Positions 2,677-18,980 of a stretch of DNA of 18,980 bases are shown one piece after another. The stretch covers positions 1 to 18,980 of the forward strand of contig JAZDMQ010000066.1 in NCBI GenBank assembly GCA_043800755.1, read 5' to 3'. Origin of the DNA: a bacterium. GTDB taxonomy: Bacteria > Methylomirabilota > Methylomirabilia > CAVQYV01. The notes under the pieces are model-generated. The model made no database searches. It was not told the DNA's origin and saw only the letters and a list, made by a program, of their open reading frames with translations. How positions within the stretch are numbered: the stretch's first letter is position 1; the number at the start of each line of letters is the position of its first letter. Made by a program: the position numbers and the translations under genes.

Positions 2677-4440
2677 ATGGATAACCCTTTCCCTTCCTCT
2701 TCCCCTTCCCCATTCTTAGTTTTCGACTTCTGCGACCGCCAGGGCAGACTACAGCGCCTTGGCTTCATGAATCCTTCAAGGATCATTATTGCGAATTCTG
2801 TGGACGAAGTTCGACCGGCACTCCGAACAGTACACCAGTCAGTGGGCGCCGGATTCTACGCGGCTGGATACATCTCCTACGAGGCTGCACCCGCCTTTGA
2901 TTCAGCATTAGTGGCACATGAGGCAAGGATACCTTTGCTCTGGTTCGGCCTCTTTCGGGGGCCGGTTGAAGTTGCCCCTTCCCACTCTGATGACGGGTTT
3001 CATCTCACAGACTGGCAACCCTCGATCACTCGAAACCTGTATGATAGCCATATTGCGGCAGTACGGGAGGCGATCGCACGAGGTGATACCTACCAGGTGA
3101 ACTATACCATGCGATTGCGTGCTCGATTTGAAGGCGATGACTTCGCCTTCTACCATCGTCTGCGGCACGCACAGCGTGCAAGCTACTGTGCTTATCTCAA
3201 CATGGGGCGCTACCGCATTCTCTCTGCCTCCCCAGAGCTGTTCTTTCGCTGGCACGGTAGCCAAATCATCACCCGACCCATGAAAGGAACCGTGCGGCGC
3301 GGGCGCTGGACTGAGGAGGATGAAGCCTTATCTGCCTGGCTTGCAGCCTCGGAGAAGAATCGTGCGGAAAATGTAATGATCGTTGATTTACTTCGCAACG
3401 ACTTAGGGCGAGTTGCGGAGATTGGCTCTGTGTATGTCTCCCGCCTCTTTGAGATTGAGCGTTACCGTACGGTCTTCCAAATGACCTCCACTATTTCCGC
3501 GAAGGTGCCTCCTTACACAACTTTGGAGGATGTATTCGCGGCGCTTTTCCCCTCCGGCTCCATCACCGGCGCACCAAAGGTGAGTACGATGGAGCTCATC
3601 GCGGAGCTGGAAGAGGAACCACGGAATAGTTACTGCGGTGCAATTGGCCTGGTGACACCCGACGGGGAGGCTGTATTCAATGTCGCCATTCGCACCGTGT
3701 TGGTGGATAGCCAGACGGGCATCGCAGAGTACGGCGTTGGCGGTGGCATCACCTGGGACTCCACTGCCGAGGATGAGTACGCGGAGGCACTGGCCAAGGC
3801 AGCGGTCCTGGCAGAGGCGTGGCCCAGGTTCGACCTGTTGGAGACCCTTCGCCTGGAGGAAGGAACATATGCGCGGTTAGAGAGGCATCTTGAGCGCCTC
3901 ATCGCCTCAGCTTCCTACTTCGACATCCCTCTCTCGGCCGAGGGAGTGCGATCTGCATTGGAAGAGCACGCACGGGTCTATTCGAGTGGAGCACGGCGGG
4001 TGCGGCTTCTGGTCTCGCCCGAGGGAAAAGTGCGGGTGGAGAGCGATCCATTGCCTCTGGCCTCCCAAGCTTCACTCCCTGTTGCCCTGGCAAGTCAACC
4101 CGTTTCCCGATTCAATCGTTTTCTCTACCATAAAACCACCTACCGATCCCTCTATGAGGCGCATCGGGCCGTACATCCCGATGTCTTTGATGTCCTGCTC
4201 TGGAATCAGGAAGGAGAACTCACCGAGTTTACCATAGGCAACCTTGTAATCGAGATGGATGGCTGCCGCTGGACGCCACCCCGTGAAAGCGGCTTGTTGG
4301 CAGGCACCTTCCGCGCCCATCTGATCGACCGGGGTGAGATCTGTGAGCGAGTCCTTTCGCGGGGAGATTTAGGGCGCGCCTCGCATCTCTGGTTGATCAA
4401 CAGCGTCCGAGGTTGGGTGCCTGTGCACTTGGTCCCGTAG
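2677..4440 (+). CDS. pabB: aminodeoxychorismate synthase component I fused to class IV aminotransferase-like ADC lyase (PabB-PabC fusion)
   Basis: GDTYQVN, SPELFF, TRPMKGT, KNRAENVMIVDLLRNDL, FPSGSITGAPK, GGGITWDS; C-terminal LLETLR...HLERL, HKTT (PLP lysine), SGLLAGT, NSVRG. Confidence 0.92.
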   Translation: MDNPFPSSSPSPFLVFDFCDRQGRLQRLGFMNPSRIIIANSVDEVRPALRTVHQSVGAGFYAAGYISYEAAPAFDSALVAHEARIPLLWFGLFRGPVEVAPSHSDDGFHLTDWQPSITRNLYDSHIAAVREAIARGDTYQVNYTMRLRARFEGDDFAFYHRLRHAQRASYCAYLNMGRYRILSASPELFFRWHGSQIITRPMKGTVRRGRWTEEDEALSAWLAASEKNRAENVMIVDLLRNDLGRVAEIGSVYVSRLFEIERYRTVFQMTSTISAKVPPYTTLEDVFAALFPSGSITGAPKVSTMELIAELEEEPRNSYCGAIGLVTPDGEAVFNVAIRTVLVDSQTGIAEYGVGGGITWDSTAEDEYAEALAKAAVLAEAWPRFDLLETLRLEEGTYARLERHLERLIASASYFDIPLSAEGVRSALEEHARVYSSGARRVRLLVSPEGKVRVESDPLPLASQASLPVALASQPVSRFNRFLYHKTTYRSLYEAHRAVHPDVFDVLLWNQEGELTEFTIGNLVIEMDGCRWTPPRESGLLAGTFRAHLIDRGEICERVLSRGDLGRASHLWLINSVRGWVPVHLVP

Positions 4441-11668: not shown

Positions 11669-13735
11669 ATGAAAACAAAGCACGGTCGCTCATTGATCCT
11701 GGTCCTCATCCTGGGCTTCATCGGCCTCAGCGCCCTGGAATGCTCGGCCTATTTGGAGCAAATCTTGGCTGCCAAGAGAGCACCCAGGTTGGATGCGGTT
11801 CTCGAGGTGGGTACCATGCCCTCTCCCCTCCCTTCCCGCCGTCAGATCATCGACGCCGATAAGGGTGCCTCCTGCCTGTTGTGTCACCGCATGCCTTATC
11901 CCACTGCACCTCAGAAGCCGTCCAAACCAGGAGAGACAGTCCTCTCTTCGATTCAAACGACCCCTCCTGGAGGCCTGCGCCTGCTGACCTCCGCTTCCCC
12001 CCCTCTGAACAGCATCGCCGGGGCATGGAGCCCGGACGGCAAGCAGGTGGCCTATTCCATCAATCTTTTTCAGAAGGATTGGGATATCTGGGTAATCGAC
12101 GCGGATGGCAAGAATCGCCGGCCATTGATCTCGGGCTCTGCCATCGATATGGCCCCGGATTGGAGCCGGGATGGCAAATCCATCCTCTTTCAATCCAATC
12201 GATCCGGGAATAACGATATCTGGATGATGGAGATCGCTTCCAAGAAGCTGACCCAGCTCACCCAAGACCCGGGCCAGGAGATCCTGCCCAAATGGTCACC
12301 GGATAGAAAGAGGATCGTATTCCAGTCCAACCGCTCGGGCGATGAAGAGATCTGGGTGATGGAGATCGCGAATGGGCAATGGACGCAACTCACCAATAGC
12401 CCGGCCAAGGATGAAAATCCGGTCTTCAGCCCGTCCGGAGATCAGATCCTTTTCGTCTCGGACCGCACTGGGAACAAGGACATCTTCATCATGAACGCGG
12501 ATGGCTCGGGCCAGAAGGCGCTGACCCAAGGACCAGACGAGGATATGGCGCCCAACTGGAGCCCAGATGGCAAGAAGATCATTTTTTCCCGCAAGAACGG
12601 AGACAACCTGGATCTTTGGGTGATGAATCGAGACGGGAGCGAGCCGATCCGTCTGACCAGCCATCCGGCCGCAGAGGTCGGTCCGTACTGGAGCCCGGAT
12701 GGAAAGTGGATCATCTTTTCTTCCAACATCCGCGGCAATTGGGATGTCCTCCTCATGCAGGTGGATGCCTCGATGGTCGATCCGGAGAAGAGCCCCGTGA
12801 AGCGCCTCACCGATTCCGAGGCCCGAGAGGTGGGGGCAGTCTTCAGCCCGGATGGAAAGAAGATTGCCTATAATTCGGACGTAAAGGGACACTGGAGCCT
12901 CTGGGTGATGGAGGTGGATGGATCCAATAAAAAGCAGCTCACCGCCGATGACGAGGATGCCGGCTGGCCCGCCTGGTCCCCCGATGGCAAGCAGATCCTC
13001 TACTGGGCCACGAAGAATGGCAATCAGGATGTCTGGGTGATCAATGCCGATGGCTCCCACAAGAAGCGGCTGACCGATGATCCAGCCCTGGATGGAGATG
13101 CACAGTGGAGCCCGGACGGAAAGGGGATCGTCTTCGTCTCCGAGCGATCCGGAAAGGGTGATATCTATGTCATGGATGTCGATGGCTCCGGCCTCAAACG
13201 CCTGACCTTCACCGACGCCCTCGATTGGACGCCTTATTGGAGTCCGGACGGCAAGAGGATCGCCTATGTCTCGAATGCGACCGGCAAATGGGAGATATGG
13301 ACGGTGGAGGTCGAGACTTTAGAGAGAGCACACCTCACACCTGATTCCTGCGGCAGCTTTGCACCGCGGTGGAGGTGGGACGGGAGTCAGATCTGCCGTG
13401 TGACATGGCAAGGGGGTGAGTACGCCATCAAGGGCAGCTTCGATGTGGGGATCATGGACCAGGACGGCAGCGGAAAGATCGAGCTGGCCCCCTCTCCCTT
13501 CGATGAGCGCTCCGCCCGTTGGTGTCCTGATGGCAGTCGGATCCTATTTTGGTCCTGGCGGACCGGAAACCCCGAGATCTTCGTGGTGAAAACTGACGGC
13601 TCCCGCCTGACCCAGCTGACCGACAACCTCGCTTACGATGTCTTCCCCTCCTTCAGTCCGGACGGAAAGAAGATCGCCTTCGATTCCGACCGGATGGGGA
13701 ACTTCGATATCTGGGTGATGGAGGTACCTCGATGA
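11669..13735 (+). CDS. secreted protein with single CxxCH motif and 13 PD40/TolB-like beta-propeller repeats (paralog 1)
   Basis: Signal peptide; CLLCH at aa 69-73; 13 (W/F)SPDG-type repeats; lacks a recognisable TolB N-terminal domain; GGAGG RBS. Confidence 0.9.
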   Translation: MKTKHGRSLILVLILGFIGLSALECSAYLEQILAAKRAPRLDAVLEVGTMPSPLPSRRQIIDADKGASCLLCHRMPYPTAPQKPSKPGETVLSSIQTTPPGGLRLLTSASPPLNSIAGAWSPDGKQVAYSINLFQKDWDIWVIDADGKNRRPLISGSAIDMAPDWSRDGKSILFQSNRSGNNDIWMMEIASKKLTQLTQDPGQEILPKWSPDRKRIVFQSNRSGDEEIWVMEIANGQWTQLTNSPAKDENPVFSPSGDQILFVSDRTGNKDIFIMNADGSGQKALTQGPDEDMAPNWSPDGKKIIFSRKNGDNLDLWVMNRDGSEPIRLTSHPAAEVGPYWSPDGKWIIFSSNIRGNWDVLLMQVDASMVDPEKSPVKRLTDSEAREVGAVFSPDGKKIAYNSDVKGHWSLWVMEVDGSNKKQLTADDEDAGWPAWSPDGKQILYWATKNGNQDVWVINADGSHKKRLTDDPALDGDAQWSPDGKGIVFVSERSGKGDIYVMDVDGSGLKRLTFTDALDWTPYWSPDGKRIAYVSNATGKWEIWTVEVETLERAHLTPDSCGSFAPRWRWDGSQICRVTWQGGEYAIKGSFDVGIMDQDGSGKIELAPSPFDERSARWCPDGSRILFWSWRTGNPEIFVVKTDGSRLTQLTDNLAYDVFPSFSPDGKKIAFDSDRMGNFDIWVMEVPR

Positions 13736-13850
13736 TTAGATAAGATTCATGACAAGTCACACGTTTAACAATAGGTGATCAAAGAATTGACCGTGGTCGG
13801 GATTCTTTGATTGTTTGCTTGGCAAAACTGCTTCGGTTTGGAGGTCACTG

Positions 13851-15953
13851 GTGAAAAGCAAACATCGTCCCATGTTTCTGGGAGTGCTCGCACTCTCTCT
13901 GCTCCTGGGCTCATTCACCCTTTTGCCTCTCAAGTCGGCAGCCTATGAAAAGCTTACCGGAGCCGACACGCAGCAGAAGAAAGAAGTGGTCAGGGGCGCC
14001 TTCCCGGATCAGGTTCCCGAAGTAGGCGGAGTCCCCTTCCCTCTTCCTTCCCGGCGTCAGATCATAGACGCCAACAAGGGGGCTGTCTGCCTGCAATGTC
14101 ACCGCATGCCTTATCCCACGGCACCCCAGAAGCCGGAAGCACCTGGGAAAGAGACCCCTTCCTCCATTCAGATCAGCGCCCCCGGAGGATGGCGACTCCT
14201 CACCTCGCTCCCCTACCCTTTTAACAAAAGAGTGGGAGGGTGGAGTCCGGACGGCAAGCAGCTGGCCTATTCCGTTAATCTCTTTCAAGATGATTGGGAT
14301 ATCTGGGTAACGGATGCCAACGGCAAGAATCGCCGTCCCCTCCTTTCCGGACCTACGAGCGACCGGGCACCTGCCTTCAGCCCGGATGGCAAATCCATCC
14401 TCTTTCAATCCAATCGATCCGGGAATAACGATATCTGGATGATGGAGATCGCCTCCAAGAAGCTGACCCAGCTCACGAACCATTCCAGCGAAGAGACCAT
14501 GCCCAGATGGTCGCCGGATGCAAAGTATATAGTCTTTCAGTCCAACCGCTCGGGCGGTGAGGATATCTGGACGATGGAGCTGGACACGAAAAAATGGAGG
14601 CAGTTGACAAACGATCCGGCCAGTGACGAGGCTCCCGTCTTCAGCCCCAAGGGGGACCAGATCGTCTTCGTCTCCAATCGCTCCGGCAATAAGGAGATTT
14701 GGGTCATGAACCCGGATGGCTCGGGCCAGAAGGCGCTGACCCAAAAGCCAGGCGAGGATGTAACCCCCTGCTGGTCCCCAGATGGAAGGAAGATCCTCTT
14801 CTCCCACAAGCGGAAAGACAACTGGGACCTCTGGGTGATGAATGCAGATGGGAGCGAGCCCATCCGCCTGACCACCCATCCGGCCGCAGAGATGGATCCC
14901 CACTGGAGCCCGGACGGAGGGTCAATCTGTTTCTCCTCCAATATCCGGGGTAAATGGGACGTCCTCCTCATGCAGGTGGATGCCTCCATGGTCGATCCCT
15001 CTCGTAGCCCTCTCAAGCGCCTCACCGACAGCGAGGCCCGGGAGGTAGGGCCGATCTGGAGCCCGGATGGGAAGAAGATCGCCTACAACTCCGATGTGAA
15101 GGGTCACTGGAGCCTCTGGGTCATGGACTCGGATGGGTCCAACCATAAGCAACTGACCGGCGACGGGGAAAATGCCGGCTGGCCCTGCTGGAGCCTGGAC
15201 GGGAAGAGAATCCTGTACTGGGCATGCAAGAATGGAAATGAGGACGTATGGGTGACGGATGCGGATGGATCGAACAAGAGACGCTTAACCGATCATCCAG
15301 CCCTGGATGGAGACGCTGAGTGGAGCCCGGATGGAAAGAAAATTGTCTTCGTCTCTGAACGCACCGGTCTGGGCGATATCTATGTGATGGATGCTGATGG
15401 TACCAATCTCAAGCGCTTGACTTTCACCGACGCCTTCGATTGGACGCCCCACTGGAGCCCAGACGGGCGGAAGGTGGCTTACATCTCCAATGAGACCGGC
15501 CAGTTCGAGATCTGGGTGGTGGATGTCGAGACCTCAGAGAAGGGTCATCTCACCCCCGAGGGGCAGGCCAACGTGGTGCCTCAGTGGAGGCCGGACGGCC
15601 AACAGATCCTCTATTCAGGATGGCGAGGAGGTAAATACAAGGCCCTGCAGGGGAGCTATGATCTGGTAACCATGGATCCCCAGGGCGGCAGCAAGCAGGA
15701 CATCGTCACCTCCCCGCGGGACGAGATGACCCCGCGGTGGAGCCCAGATGGAAAGAGGATCCTCTTCTCCTCCTGGCGGACGGGGAATCCGGAGATCTAC
15801 ATTGCCGGCTATGATGGAAGCGGGCTGACCCAGCTCACCGATAATTCATCCTGGGATGTCCACGCAGCCTGGTCTCCTAACGGCAAGAAGATCGCCTTCG
15901 ATTCCGACCGCATGGGCAACTTCGATATCTGGGTGATGGAGGTGCGGGAGTAA
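13851..15953 (+). CDS. secreted protein with single CxxCH motif and 13 PD40/TolB-like repeats (paralog 2, 700 aa)
   Basis: GTG start after GGAGGTCAC (same context as paralog 1; MKSKH vs MKTKH); CLQCH at aa 80-84; 13 repeats colinear with paralog 1. Confidence 0.9.
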   Translation: MKSKHRPMFLGVLALSLLLGSFTLLPLKSAAYEKLTGADTQQKKEVVRGAFPDQVPEVGGVPFPLPSRRQIIDANKGAVCLQCHRMPYPTAPQKPEAPGKETPSSIQISAPGGWRLLTSLPYPFNKRVGGWSPDGKQLAYSVNLFQDDWDIWVTDANGKNRRPLLSGPTSDRAPAFSPDGKSILFQSNRSGNNDIWMMEIASKKLTQLTNHSSEETMPRWSPDAKYIVFQSNRSGGEDIWTMELDTKKWRQLTNDPASDEAPVFSPKGDQIVFVSNRSGNKEIWVMNPDGSGQKALTQKPGEDVTPCWSPDGRKILFSHKRKDNWDLWVMNADGSEPIRLTTHPAAEMDPHWSPDGGSICFSSNIRGKWDVLLMQVDASMVDPSRSPLKRLTDSEAREVGPIWSPDGKKIAYNSDVKGHWSLWVMDSDGSNHKQLTGDGENAGWPCWSLDGKRILYWACKNGNEDVWVTDADGSNKRRLTDHPALDGDAEWSPDGKKIVFVSERTGLGDIYVMDADGTNLKRLTFTDAFDWTPHWSPDGRKVAYISNETGQFEIWVVDVETSEKGHLTPEGQANVVPQWRPDGQQILYSGWRGGKYKALQGSYDLVTMDPQGGSKQDIVTSPRDEMTPRWSPDGKRILFSSWRTGNPEIYIAGYDGSGLTQLTDNSSWDVHAAWSPNGKKIAFDSDRMGNFDIWVMEVRE

Positions 15954-15998
15954 TATCAAGATAGACTCCTGATCCTGAGGTTAAGACTGAACAACTTC

Positions 15999-16048
15999 AA
16001 GGGCGCCTCGAGTCGATTGCATCGATCATTGGGGCGCCCTTCTTTCTT
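15999..16048 (+). terminator. probable intrinsic terminator after the propeller pair
   Basis: AAGGGCGCCTC...GGGGCGCCCTT followed by CTTTCTT. Confidence 0.6.
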
Positions 16049-16082
16049 GATGGGATTCCCTGCGCTCCTTCCCATTTTTTTC

Positions 16083-16112
16083 TTGACAGCCCAGAAATGA
16101 TGGAAGTATAAA
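16083..16112 (+). promoter_or_regulatory. sigma70 promoter upstream of the riboswitch
   Basis: TTGACA-18 bp-TATAAA. Confidence 0.65.
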
Positions 16113-16133
16113 AGACGGAAAGATAAATGGCCA

Positions 16134-16233
16134 TCGACTCTGATCTGGCATTCCTAAAGCCTGTGCTACGGATGCCAGGCGATAGGGTGCTTCTGGAAAC
16201 GGATGCGCCTCCCGTGCTTGGAAAGGAGTTCGA
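16134..16233 (+). ncRNA. Moco RNA motif riboswitch, P3-lacking (Tuco/tungsten-cofactor type)
   Basis: P1 GACTCT/GGAGTT; P2 TCTGGCAT-tCCTAAAGC..GCTACGG-ATGCCAGG; then directly AGGGTGC..GGAAAC..GCGCCT; CCCGT..GGAAAGGAGT 3' signature; upstream of a TupA-like gene. Confidence 0.88.
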
Positions 16234-16249
16234 GTAGCGGCTGCCATTT

Positions 16250-16313
16250 GCCGGCGTGAAGCTCGTCTCCGCCGGCTTCTTTTTTGCCGGTGTGAAGCTC
16301 GCCGGCCTTTTTC
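16250..16313 (+). terminator. two tandem, mutually similar terminators (riboswitch expression platform)
   Basis: GCCGGCG...CGCCGGC-TTCTTTTTT and GCCGGTG...CGCCGGC-CTTTTT. Confidence 0.75.
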
Positions 16314-16556
16314 GGCGGTCCCTCGGGTTTTCCAGCGGAATGGAACAAGGGGTCCCTGCCTCCTCCCTCCAAACCCCTTTTTTTCCGCCTCGGAGAGAGC
16401 CTCCTCTGGCTCTCTTCCGCCCATTCAGGCTGAAATGCCTTAATCTGACGGAAAGGAGTGATACCCATGAGAGACCAAACAACAATTACCGACGCTCTTC
16501 CTTCGTCTTTCAACGATCATAATTGCTTTCGTTCTCTTGTCCGAAAGGAGATGATG

Positions 16557-18038
16557 ATGAAAGGCATGCAAGTCATCCTCACCGCCCTCTTAGCGGTGGG
16601 ACTGCTCTGTCTCTTGCCTGCCCAGGGGCTCGCGGCCGAAAAATCCCTGGCCGATATCCTCAAGGAAAAAGGCGTCATCACCGAAGAGGAATATCAGCAG
16701 GTGAAGCAGATGGAGGAGGCCCAGAAGGCAGAAGAAGCCAAGAAGGTGGAGGAAGCTGCCAAAAAGGCAGAGGAAGCCGCCAAAAAGGCCACTGCGGCGG
16801 CGGAGAAGCCCGCCTCGGTGGTCGCCGGCTATCAGAAGGGCTTCTTCCTCCAGACCCCGGACGGGAAGTTCAAGGCTCTCTTCACCGGATATCTCCGGCC
16901 TGAGCTACGCCTTTACGAGAACAACACCTCCCAGGACAATCAATTCATGATACGCCAGGCCCGTTTCATCCTCGATGGATTTTACGGAAAATACTGGCAG
17001 AGCCGTATCGCCGGGGAATTCTCCACTCCCAGTGACGGCAAGTTCCTCAAGTACGCCTACCTGAATTGCAGCTATCTTCCAGATCTTCAGGTGCGGGCCG
17101 GACAGTTCAAGGCCCCCTTCAGCCGTGAATATCTGACCTCCATGCCCGACGTAGATACCATCGAGCGGAGCATGATCACCGAGAACCTGGTCCCCAAATA
17201 TGACATCGGCCTAATGCTCCACGGGCCAAAGGTGCTCGGGGGAGTGCTCAACTACGGAATCGGGGTCTTCAACGGCTACGGCGCCAACAATTCTGACGAG
17301 AACGATGACAAGGATCTGATCGCCAGGTTGGTGCTCGCCCCCTTTGTCACCAGCGATGTGGCAGCCGTCAAGGGTCTGGAGATCGGTGGTTCCTATCAAT
17401 TTGGGCGGCAGCTCAAGTATGAGTTTCAACCGAAGCTCCCCACGGATTGGGCCATGTTCAAAAAAACGACCTGTCGCGGAGATCGTGAGCGCTATGGTGT
17501 CGATCTGGCTTACAAGATAGGGCCCTTCAAGCTGCAGGGAGAATACATCTATCAGCGGGCAGAGCGGGAGAAACAGGTCCGGGTGAATCCGAGTACCCAT
17601 CAGATCGTCAGCTCTGGTGGAAAGCTGATCGATGCCCCGGATTTGATTACCCAGGGTTGGTATGTCCTGGGCACCCTGTTCGTTTGGGGCAACGAAGAGA
17701 AGGGCGTTCAGATGGTGGGGCGCTACGAGCAGATGGATTTCGATGACAAGGACGCCTCGAACGATTACTTAGAGGCCAATCCGGTGGGGAAGAACTCCCT
17801 TCTGAACCCCTACGGAAATGAGTTGAACAAGCGTGGAAATACCGCCGATGTCCTGACCTTGGGGATGAACTTTTTCCCCATGAAGAATGTGAAGCTGGCC
17901 TTCAACTGGTTCTATCAGACCATGGATAACATCTACACCACGGATAAGGTCAAACATGATACCGAGGGCAACGAGTATTTCACGGCCAAAGGCGGACCCA
18001 TGAATGCCTTCTACTTCCTGACCCAGGTGAGATGGTAG
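16557..18038 (+). CDS. outer-membrane porin, phosphate-selective OprO/OprP family (493 aa)
   Basis: Signal peptide; LADILKEKGVITEEEY plus Ala/Glu/Lys coiled coil; GFFLQTPDG, FMIRQAR, VRAGQFKAPFSREY, IERS, GVFNG; C-terminal aromatic ...TQVRW. The start could also be 16551, 16554 or 16467. Confidence 0.85.
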   Translation: MKGMQVILTALLAVGLLCLLPAQGLAAEKSLADILKEKGVITEEEYQQVKQMEEAQKAEEAKKVEEAAKKAEEAAKKATAAAEKPASVVAGYQKGFFLQTPDGKFKALFTGYLRPELRLYENNTSQDNQFMIRQARFILDGFYGKYWQSRIAGEFSTPSDGKFLKYAYLNCSYLPDLQVRAGQFKAPFSREYLTSMPDVDTIERSMITENLVPKYDIGLMLHGPKVLGGVLNYGIGVFNGYGANNSDENDDKDLIARLVLAPFVTSDVAAVKGLEIGGSYQFGRQLKYEFQPKLPTDWAMFKKTTCRGDRERYGVDLAYKIGPFKLQGEYIYQRAEREKQVRVNPSTHQIVSSGGKLIDAPDLITQGWYVLGTLFVWGNEEKGVQMVGRYEQMDFDDKDASNDYLEANPVGKNSLLNPYGNELNKRGNTADVLTLGMNFFPMKNVKLAFNWFYQTMDNIYTTDKVKHDTEGNEYFTAKGGPMNAFYFLTQVRW

Positions 18039-18144
18039 CAGGGGGTGGAGAAGGCTGCTCGTTGTTTGCTGCTACGACCTGTTCACCGGAGACCTGGATC
18101 CCGAAACCGTGCTCGAGGAGCTGATCCCCTGGTGGGAAGTGGGA

Positions 18145-18188
18145 ATGTGCCCTGCCTGAATCGACACTCAAGCAGGGCACATCGTTTT
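18145..18188 (+). terminator. stem-loop/possible terminator between porin and TupA-like gene
   Basis: ATGTGCCCTGC...GCAGGGCACAT followed by CGTTTT. Confidence 0.55.
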
Positions 18189-18264
18189 CAGGAACCGAGG
18201 CTCCCCTGACCGAAGCTCCTTGGGCAAGGCCTGTTCATTCTCTCTCACCTCAGGAGGTCAAATC

Positions 18265-18980
18265 ATGTCTCAATCGATCAAGAACGCCTCGACATCGTGG
18301 AGTATACTGCTGTTCTTGGGTTTCGTAGTACTCTTCGCCAGCCCAGGATTCGCCCAGGAGAAGTACGATGGGGTGTATGGAGATGGGGGGAATCGTTTCG
18401 TCCTGACCACCGGCAGCCCGGGGGAGTTGGGATTGTTAAAAGCGCTGGGGGAGGCCTTCGCCCAGCAGGAGAAGGCGACACTCCTGTGGAAAAAGGCCGG
18501 ATCGGGTGAGACCCTGAAGCTGCTGAAAGAAAAAAAGGTGGATGCCATCATGGTCCACGATCCGGAGGGGGAGAAGAAGGCCATCACGGAAGGATGGGCC
18601 ATGGGGCGCACCCTGATCGGATCGAATGAGTTTTTCATTGTGGGCCCAACAGACGACCCGGCGGGAATCAGCTCCGTCAAGAGCGCGGTGGAGGCCTATC
18701 AGAAGATCGCCGCGGCGCATGCAAAGTTCTTCTCTCGGGGCGATAACTCTGGAACCCACAAAAAGGAACTCGCTGTCTGGAAGAAGGCTGGCATCGAGCC
18801 TAAAGGGGATTGGTACCAGATCACGGGCGGATTCATGAAGGCAACCCTCAAGCGAGCCAACGATGAGAAGGGTTACTTCATGACCGACAGCAGCACCTGG
18901 ATCATGGAGAAAACCAATCTTCCCGACCTGAAGGTCCTGTTCCGGGGCGACAAGTTCCTGGTCAACACCTATCACACCCT
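18265..18980 (+). CDS. TupA-like tungstate/oxyanion ABC transporter substrate-binding protein (partial, runs off window)
   Basis: Not in the ORF track because it has no stop in the window. ATG after AGGAGG; MSQSIKN...signal peptide, TTGSPGELG, AGSG, MVHDP, SNEFFIVGPTDDPA, FFSRGDNSGTHKKE, MTDSST, LVNTYH. Confidence 0.88.
   Translation, partial: MSQSIKNASTSWSILLFLGFVVLFASPGFAQEKYDGVYGDGGNRFVLTTGSPGELGLLKALGEAFAQQEKATLLWKKAGSGETLKLLKEKKVDAIMVHDPEGEKKAITEGWAMGRTLIGSNEFFIVGPTDDPAGISSVKSAVEAYQKIAAAHAKFFSRGDNSGTHKKELAVWKKAGIEPKGDWYQITGGFMKATLKRANDEKGYFMTDSSTWIMEKTNLPDLKVLFRGDKFLVNTYHT

Follow-up and report, generated by a model that had tools for sequence, protein, structure and literature searches.

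The window analysed here, an 18,980-nt stretch that makes up one whole contig (JAZDMQ010000066.1 of assembly GCA_043800755.1) of a bacterium of the phylum Methylomirabilota, ends with a riboswitch of the molybdenum/tungsten cofactor (Moco/Tuco) family, a gene for a porin of the OprO/OprP family and the beginning of a gene for a TupA-like periplasmic binding protein (Table 1). Tungstate and molybdate are commonly assumed to cross the outer membrane passively, by way of general porins, and the question is what a cofactor riboswitch in front of an outer-membrane channel might be for. From our point of view, the evidence leans towards a riboswitch-controlled porin operon for tungstate/molybdate uptake, with ligand, mechanism, co-transcription and substrate judged from genomic context, and it makes the porin a credible, context-based candidate for an outer-membrane route for tungstate.

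A first-pass annotation, made from the letters of the window, had proposed a promoter, an aptamer, terminators, the porin gene and the TupA-like gene in one orientation, and all of them were recovered on the plus strand at or near the places it had given. The assignment of the aptamer to the Moco family was borne out by the Rfam covariance model RF01055, which matches over its full length (model positions 1-135) with 64.7 bits against a gathering score of 36 (E 8e-14) and is the sole Rfam family that reaches its gathering score across the window. The proposed P3-less class is likewise correct, the model positions of the P3 hairpin (~59-74) being deleted. A search of 151 genomes of the phylum returned 11 RF01055 copies, P3 is absent from 11/11, and the window copy aligns with the other 10. 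Absence of P3 has been tied to tungsten-related genes (Regulski et al., 2008, PMC2408646, in excerpt), and terminator-type P3-less riboswitches of Eubacterium limosum go up under tungsten limitation (PMC11725836, in excerpt). Nine other P3-less copies of the phylum precede tupABC (in the source genome itself), tupA-tupB, tupB-tupC (three copies) and genes for a MoCF_biosynth protein, a GEGP di-haem protein, a RACo-like protein and a xanthine-dehydrogenase-type enzyme.

The source genome (G000; 2.43 Mb in 166 contigs, completeness rated 100%) fits into this picture. Its tupA-tupB-tupC operon lies on contig C133, ~9 kb downstream and on the same strand, and is preceded by the second P3-less RF01055 copy of the genome (71.4 bits), with ~45 nt from terminator to start. 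Seven AFOR_N genes (tungsten-type aldehyde oxidoreductase) and three PF00384 enzymes are encoded in G000, no ModA (TIGR01256) was found in it, and the host looks tungsten-dependent.

How the RNA could act on the porin gene was approached with an alignment of four riboswitch leaders from the source genome and from G001, a relative of the same family that served as comparison genome for leaders and porin paralogs. Both promoter hexamers are kept in 4/4 leaders. The promoter scan, which is consensus-only, listed no plus-strand site, and passed over the TTGACA/TATAAA pair because it demands T at position 6 of the -10 hexamer; the promoter call therefore rests on leader conservation. Terminator T1 is missing from the terminator scan because its 13-nt loop exceeds the loop length of the scan, and a hairpin with a U-tract is kept at its position in 4/4 leaders. 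The loop and 3' strand of T1 (CUCGUCUCC) are complementary to the 3' strand of P1 (GGAGUUCGAG, 16225-16234), which would permit an antiterminator, and the computed folds of the conformer with P1 and terminator (-65.6 kcal/mol) and of the forced antiterminator conformer (-64.4 kcal/mol) are nearly isoenergetic. In the two aligned leaders of G001, namely the porin leader and that of a riboswitch called RS1 below, the P1-complementary segment is kept with different bases (CUCAACUCC, CUCAUCUCC). These features fit an OFF switch acting by transcription termination, as judged from the sequence for ligand binding and mechanism alike.

In the scheme that we envisage, the P3-less (Tuco-type) riboswitch would act as a termination OFF switch on an operon in which the porin gene is the first and only constant member. 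At low levels of the tungsten cofactor, the 3' strand of P1 would pair with the 3' half of the terminator, and transcription would read through the two terminators and the 240-nt leader into the porin gene; the orphan TupA-like gene would probably be transcribed too, at a lower level. The porin would pass tungstate, and probably molybdate, across the outer membrane, and periplasmic binding proteins would capture the anion and hand it to TupBC, encoded in an operon of its own ~9 kb downstream under the same riboswitch class.

Table 1. Features of the riboswitch-porin locus in window coordinates.
Feature	Position	Strand	Details and basis
Sigma-70-like promoter	16083..16112	+	-35 TTGACA 16083-16088, 18-nt spacer, -10 TATAAA 16107-16112; read from sequence
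Moco/Tuco riboswitch aptamer RF01055, P3-less class	16128..16244	+	Rfam covariance model
Intrinsic terminator T1	16250..16285	+	7-bp GC stem GCCGGCG/CGCCGGC at 16250-16276, 13-nt loop, U-tract to 16285, UUCUUUUUU; read from sequence
Terminator T2, tandem partial duplicate of T1	16286..16312	+	Terminator scan: hairpin 16286-16306, 7 pairs (6 GC), tail CUUUUU
Long leader	16313..16553	+	~240 nt; blocks ~16390-16460 and ribosome-binding site AAAGGAG (16541-16547) shared with G001
OprO/OprP-family porin, 494 aa	16554..18038	+	Open reading frame, Pfam, profile, AlphaFold model
Porin parts			Signal peptide ~1-28 (read from sequence), helical N-terminal extension ~30-85, beta-barrel ~90-494 (residues)
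Constriction-loop motif FSREYLTSMPDVD	17130..17168	+	Residues 189-201 (coordinates span residues 193-205); aligns with OprO 117-129 including K121, S124, S125, K126
11-bp hairpin AUGUGCCCUGC/GCAGGGCACAU, then CGUUUUC	18146..18190	+	In the spacer between porin and tupA-like genes (226 nt); read from sequence
TupA-like periplasmic binding protein, ATGSPG subfamily (TTGS in the window copy)	18265..18980	+	Runs off the contig

Two further candidates around the leader were rejected, namely a third terminator (hairpin 16349-16384), which is too weak with its 4-5 bp stem and 21-nt loop, and a porin start at the in-frame ATG at 16467, which would add 29 residues before the signal peptide and is not in frame in G001. 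Contigs from two RNA libraries (>=90% likeness) lie only over 16040-16411, 16418-16661 (X22) and 16605-16755 (X23); one of them crosses both terminators and one begins upstream of the predicted promoter, DNA carry-over is possible, and no inference on transcription was drawn from them. That none lies over the barrel may be due merely to another barrel allele in the material sampled.

The evidence that carries the proposed partnership of riboswitch and porin comes from other genomes. We gathered 81 loci with porin homologues (28 from the phylum, 49 from species genomes and the four that a metagenome search for porin relatives returned) and scanned them with a custom covariance model trained on the 11 RF01055 copies of the phylum, all of them P3-less. 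The model matches upstream of the porin in 5/5 close-clade loci outside the source genome for which upstream DNA is available (L037, L038, L039, L040 and L041). Their porins are ~97% (L037, L038), 69% (L040, partial) and 61% (L039) identical to the window porin, and L041 corresponds to contig C5 of G001. None of the other 76 loci gave a match (best L043, 13.7 bits, E 0.3). Apart from the window and genome searches, Rfam RF01055 itself was run on the porin loci of the phylum only (n=29), where it hits 1/29 (G001:C5). The exception to the riboswitch-porin link among the readable close relatives is a second porin gene of G001, on contig C9, which lacks a riboswitch and heads pstS-pstC-pstA-pstB-phoU. 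Identity to the window porin is 63-66% for both G001 paralogs.

Locus L039 is particularly telling with respect to what belongs together. Over ~15954-16733, a segment comprising riboswitch, leader, signal peptide and helical extension, its sequence matches that of the window at 100%; the barrel (L039 4190-5530 against window 16740-18038) then has 55-70% nucleotide and 61% protein identity, the tupA-like gene is deleted save for a 3' remnant, and 98% identity resumes downstream. As such, riboswitch and porin form the constant unit and the binding protein appears dispensable. Very divergent barrel alleles in one genomic background are what would be expected of a surface protein under diversifying selection or exchange.

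On contig C5 of G001 the order is riboswitch, porin, TupA-like gene (frame-shifted in the assembly), canonical TupA, two genes, a third riboswitch and tupB-tupC. This contig (L035, 2768-12732) holds three P3-less riboswitches within 8 kb, of which RS1 is followed by the gene for a GEGP di-haem protein (NF041762, 376.7 bits), RS2 by the porin, TupA-like and TupA genes, and RS3 by tupB-tupC; an amino-acid-kinase-family gene lies just before RS3.

A tree of 104 porin sequences (quick IQ-TREE search, SH-aLRT support) places the close relatives in a clade of 26 rows (SH-aLRT 100), in which the group of the window porin is sister to the rest. Omitted from the tree were duplicates (L006, L024), near-identical sequences (L038, L045), partial sequences (L021, L022, L031, L040, L088) and those below 400 aa (P0022-P0024). 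The porin itself matches Pfam PF07396 (Porin_O_P) with 94.6 bits (cut-off 20.9). A single-sequence phmmer search against the PDB returned nothing relevant, so that a profile search was required, and one built from 59 family members matched OprO/OprP at E ~1e-37. The AlphaFold model (pLDDT 81.7) is closest in Foldseek to OprP (2o4v, E 5e-21), followed by OprO (4rjx, 4rjw). In the protein collection, 24 relatives have 54-95% identity and the next best 31%. Like OprP and OprO of Pseudomonas aeruginosa (2o4v, 4rjw), which are of the same Pfam family and its best structural matches, the window porin is a basic, anion-type channel encoded beside a periplasmic oxyanion-binding protein. Unlike them, at ~15-16% identity, it has an added helical N-terminal extension and, in place of adjoining pst genes or a Pho box, a cofactor riboswitch: profile checks of the neighbourhood found no pst gene near it, and 15954-16560 holds no Pho-box-like repeat.

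The constriction site of the pore allows a closer comparison with OprP, whose central phosphate sites are D94, Y62, S124, S125, K121, K126, R34 and R133 (PMC5877670, in excerpt). Numbering against OprO was anchored on F62 and D114, which is valid since two OprO PDB entries differ exactly at F62Y and D114Y, and at ~16% identity to OprO/OprP the alignment is uncertain outside the GQFKAPFSREYLTS block. In the order given, the window equivalents are K166, R137, S196, M197, Y193, P198, Y113 and R205, so that 2/8 central residues are kept (S124, R133); most of the differences are common to the whole NC10 family. The stretch after GQFKAPFSREYL separates pst-linked from tup/Moco-linked porins. It reads T-S-S-S-A in the pst-linked G001:C9 and P0003 and T-S-S-R-F in 5/5 pst-linked porins of genus g10 (OprO: T-S-S-K-W), against T-S-M-P-D in the Moco-linked window porin, I-T-L-A-D in the Moco-linked G001:C5, D-S-I-A-Q-D in the Moco-linked L039 and F-S-D-N-N in 9/9 tupA-linked g10 porins. 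Among the metagenome members of the close clade (P0002-P0021), T-S-S-S-[AG] is present in P0003, P0005 and P0006, a near-variant (T-S-T-S-A) in P0007, and an acidic residue at position 199 in P0004, P0009, P0011, P0014, P0016 and P0018-P0020. On the tup/Moco side of both lineages, the S125-equivalent and the basic residue are lost and an Asp is carried at 125 or 127. These patterns suggest, tentatively, that the constriction motif tracks genomic context.

The g10 porins, which are 29-33% identical to the window porin, provide a second lineage of this kind. They form two sister clades (each SH-aLRT 100, joined at 97), one in which a TTTS-type tupA immediately precedes the porin gene, in the same orientation, at nine loci (NF041772 scores of 211.8 and 221.7 bits in the two checked) and one with pstS downstream at five; a sixth pstS-linked locus (L033) falls into a separate clade. 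No Moco RNA was found in the genus (Rfam, 18 genomes). Judged by tree and neighbours, the association of tup genes with these porins would have arisen at least twice within the phylum. By context, the 29 phylum loci comprise 10 TupA-linked, seven PstS-linked, two next to phoU and 10 with no match to the queries. In other phyla, an ABC importer adjoins 12/47 porin loci, and in 6/6 checked it is the sulfate importer CysPTWA; these porins (L042, L046, L047, L049, L055, L057), from Acidobacteriota, Armatimonadota and Myxococcota, form a clade of their own. The split of the family into pst-, tup- and sulfate-linked members points to porins for tetrahedral oxyanions whose neighbours indicate the anion. 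The concern that homologues would sit mostly in pho/pst contexts was met by a divided answer, with pst-linked, tup/Moco-linked and sulfate-linked clades, which accords with oxyanion porins specific to their context. At L057 (3896-6166), a frame of 756 aa runs from the porin into a sulfate-binding protein, through either a genuine fusion or an overlooked stop codon.

What would the TupA-like protein contribute? The description of the second gene product as TupA-like stands as far as fold and kinship are concerned: it matches PBP_like_2 (99 bits, Pfam), and its best PDB matches are the TupA structures of Geobacter (3lr1) and Desulfovibrio alaskensis (5my5). It is, however, not a canonical TupA, with 121.1 bits for the truncated window copy and 127.4 bits for its complete counterpart in L037 (97% identical) on NF041772, for which the cut-off is 400; the tupABC-linked TupA of the source genome, to which it is 37% identical, itself scores only 245 bits. 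In alignments to 5my5 and 3lr1, the equivalents of residues H59, R118, T124 and D170 of D. alaskensis TupA, for which a TTTS motif is also described (PMC5517513, in excerpt), are kept (VH, SRGDNSGTH, MTD). In contrast to TupA, the TTTS of lobe A is replaced by TTGS in the window and by ATGS in L037 and G001, an extra N-terminal YDGxYG segment is present, and tupBC is not beside it. The subfamily comprises 4376 proteins at E <=1e-20; the best 120 are all >=65% identical and come from several phyla, 105/120 of them carry [LV][AV]TGSPG, and the source names include Desulfobacterota-type bacteria and Planctomycetes. Many members are auto-named tungstate-binding. From its sequence relations, the ATGSPG-type protein is probably an oxyanion-binding partner feeding TupBC.

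An end of contig C133 repeats exactly the 141 bases with which the window closes, and the 97%-identical metagenome contig L037 bridges the join. Read across it, the open reading frame of the binding protein continues for another 38 codons and yields a product of ~276 aa. It is followed by a convergent gene for an alpha/beta hydrolase, and neither tupB nor tupC adjoins, so that the unit consists of riboswitch, porin and TupA-like gene without permease or ATPase. The TupA-like gene of L037 spans 2937-3809. In the source genome (L004, 11511-11600, minus strand), the corresponding frame stops ~17 codons before that of L037 (3760-3812), with an ~80-nt indel between them; the earlier stop may reflect a true shortening of the protein or an error of the assembly.

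Several observations weigh against a porin operon for tungstate/molybdate uptake. The substrate of the porin is read from its context alone, and a strong hairpin separates the porin and tupA-like genes. This hairpin is present in the minimum-free-energy and centroid folds, the spacer as a whole folds no more stably than shuffled sequences (z -0.23), and the hairpin may be an attenuator that lowers expression of the second gene or an RNA-stability element for the 3' end of the porin mRNA. One of the P3-less copies of G001 precedes the xanthine-dehydrogenase-type enzyme, a molybdenum enzyme, from which it follows that the P3-less class is not strictly tungsten-related. In a second phylum (around G251), RF01055 occurs in 27/93 genomes and a porin, Tup or Pst gene at 0/27 of the loci (1500 nt on each side), so that the riboswitch-porin partnership is not general. 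The link of motif and context comprises, in the close clade, three Moco-linked alleles and one pst-linked allele, and members of no known context show intermediate motifs such as T-S-S-A-D; it is for this small independent sample and these intermediates that we call the link only suggestive. The pst-linked porin on C9 of G001 nests within the 26-member clade. As a consequence, the Moco linkage is not monophyletic on the tree, and a change of context must have taken place inside a clade in which identity to the window porin is nowhere below 54%. The linkage of these porins to tup genes and Moco RNAs holds for the RNA at the 5/5 close loci and for tupA at the nine g10 loci, and fails at this paralog. 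Furthermore, the window porin is the only PF07396 gene in the source genome, which has two pst operons, and the assembly lacks the sequence upstream of one of them. Finally, the 240-nt leader between terminator and start could hide a promoter missed by a consensus scan.

The most durable alternative is that of a general OprP-like phosphate/anion porin, the only one of the cell, to which the riboswitch adds tuning and through which tungstate passes incidentally, with no adapted site. We regard this as unlikely, although it would readily accommodate the nested pst-linked paralog (63-66% identity) and the fact that the fold and most family-level pore residues are common to pst-linked members, and although a sole OprO/P homologue beside two pst operons means that the porin may also be the phosphate porin of the cell. 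For the same two reasons, i.e. the sole homologue and the paralog within the clade, the epithet 'dedicated' is not supported for a tungstate channel. However, an OFF switch that responds to a W/Mo cofactor makes little sense for phosphate supply, and the S125-equivalent is replaced in 3/3 Moco-linked alleles and in 9/9 tup-linked g10 porins and kept in the pst-linked ones. G001 retains both paralogs, each with its own context. Moreover, the leader of the window porin is devoid of a Pho-box-like element, unlike pstS and the pst-linked porin of G001. Upstream of a pstS of the source genome (C18, 260-330, minus strand) there is a run of four TGTNAN direct repeats (one every 11 nt, ending TGTCACCGAAATGTAAC), which from its sequence is likely a Pho box, and a close variant precedes the pst-linked porin of G001. 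Both pst operons of the source genome are broken at pstS by the assembly; one assembled pstS 5' end follows a two-component pair, not a porin.

It could also be imagined that riboswitch and terminators end a short non-coding transcript or control nothing, and that the porin gene has its own promoter in the leader, adjacency being historical. The leader is indeed unusually long compared with the ~45 nt of the tupABC copy, and its blocks shared by G000 and G001 would offer room for a site that a consensus-only scan overlooks. That scan, however, gave no plus-strand promoter-like site in 16245-16553, and the RNA stays next to the porin in 5/5 other close-clade loci, even where the barrel has been replaced and 15954-16733 is 100% identical; we hence consider an independent promoter very unlikely. 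Marginally less likely still is that the porin carries another oxyanion of pterin-cofactor or tungstoenzyme metabolism (sulfate, selenite, thiotungstate) or exports anions, given that only TupA-type proteins occur as transport partners beside this clade and the g10 tup clade, and despite the family members that adjoin sulfate importers, the finding that iron transporters and a FocA-type channel are likewise under Tuco riboswitches in E. limosum (PMC11725836, in excerpt) and a weak NCBIfam match to ExtI, implicated in selenite/tellurite reduction (PMC5877670, in excerpt), which with 25 bits stays far below the cut-off of 150.

Beyond the favoured assignment as a porin operon for tungstate/molybdate uptake, one could speculate that the selectivity of OprO/OprP-type porins was shifted from phosphate to tungstate on two or more occasions in the phylum, through loss of the S125-equivalent and the basic residue and gain of an Asp, and that the window porin is a high-affinity tungstate channel under cofactor feedback, with an ATGSPG TupA-like partner of differing ligand, e.g. 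molybdate. We offer this as a possibility that we doubt more than we believe. If it were true, the ATGSPG partner would supply a molybdenum route to a cell without ModA.

Regarding precedent, the part families are known, and our literature searches returned no description of an OprO/P-type porin gene behind a cofactor riboswitch, nor of tupA paired with a porin. The locus shares P3-less aptamer, promoter, terminator platform and tupABC in the regulon with the known Moco/Tuco regulons (PMC2408646, PMC11725836, both in excerpt), from which it differs in that the controlled gene encodes an outer-membrane porin. Neither 'porin' nor 'outer membrane' occurs in the main text of PMC2408646 (the supplementary gene lists being outside that scope), and 'outer membrane' has 0 occurrences in the excerpted text of the TupA structure paper PMC5517513. 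The regulon of E. limosum, a Gram-positive organism, comprises WOR1, TupABC, iron transporters and FocA (PMC11725836, in excerpt). A further system for comparison is ExtI (NF040900) of Geobacter sulfurreducens, a distantly related porin of OprO/P type for which a non-phosphate oxyanion has been proposed (PMC5877670, in excerpt) and which, in contrast to the window porin (25.1 bits on that model), is encoded in a cytochrome cluster and is not riboswitch-controlled.

If the porin is under the same cofactor feedback as the inner-membrane importer, passage of these metals through the outer membrane would be regulated, and possibly selective, at picomolar-to-nanomolar concentrations. The paralogs C5 and C9 of G001 and the pst-linked and tupA-linked sister clades of g10 further represent natural pairs for the study of oxyanion selectivity in OprP-type channels, and both pairs differ at a defined constriction motif. 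The analysis also flags thousands of proteins auto-named 'tungstate-binding' that are without the TTTS motif.

Upstream of the riboswitch lie two tandem paralogs (11669-13735 and 13815-15953) of ~700 aa with 10-11 PD40 repeats each, which are TolB-like double propellers with ~75% DNA identity to each other, and a hairpin at ~16000-16050 looks like the terminator of these genes. Elsewhere in the window, aminodeoxychorismate synthase component I (PabB) and a PabC-like class IV aminotransferase domain are encoded together in a single open reading frame (2677-4440).

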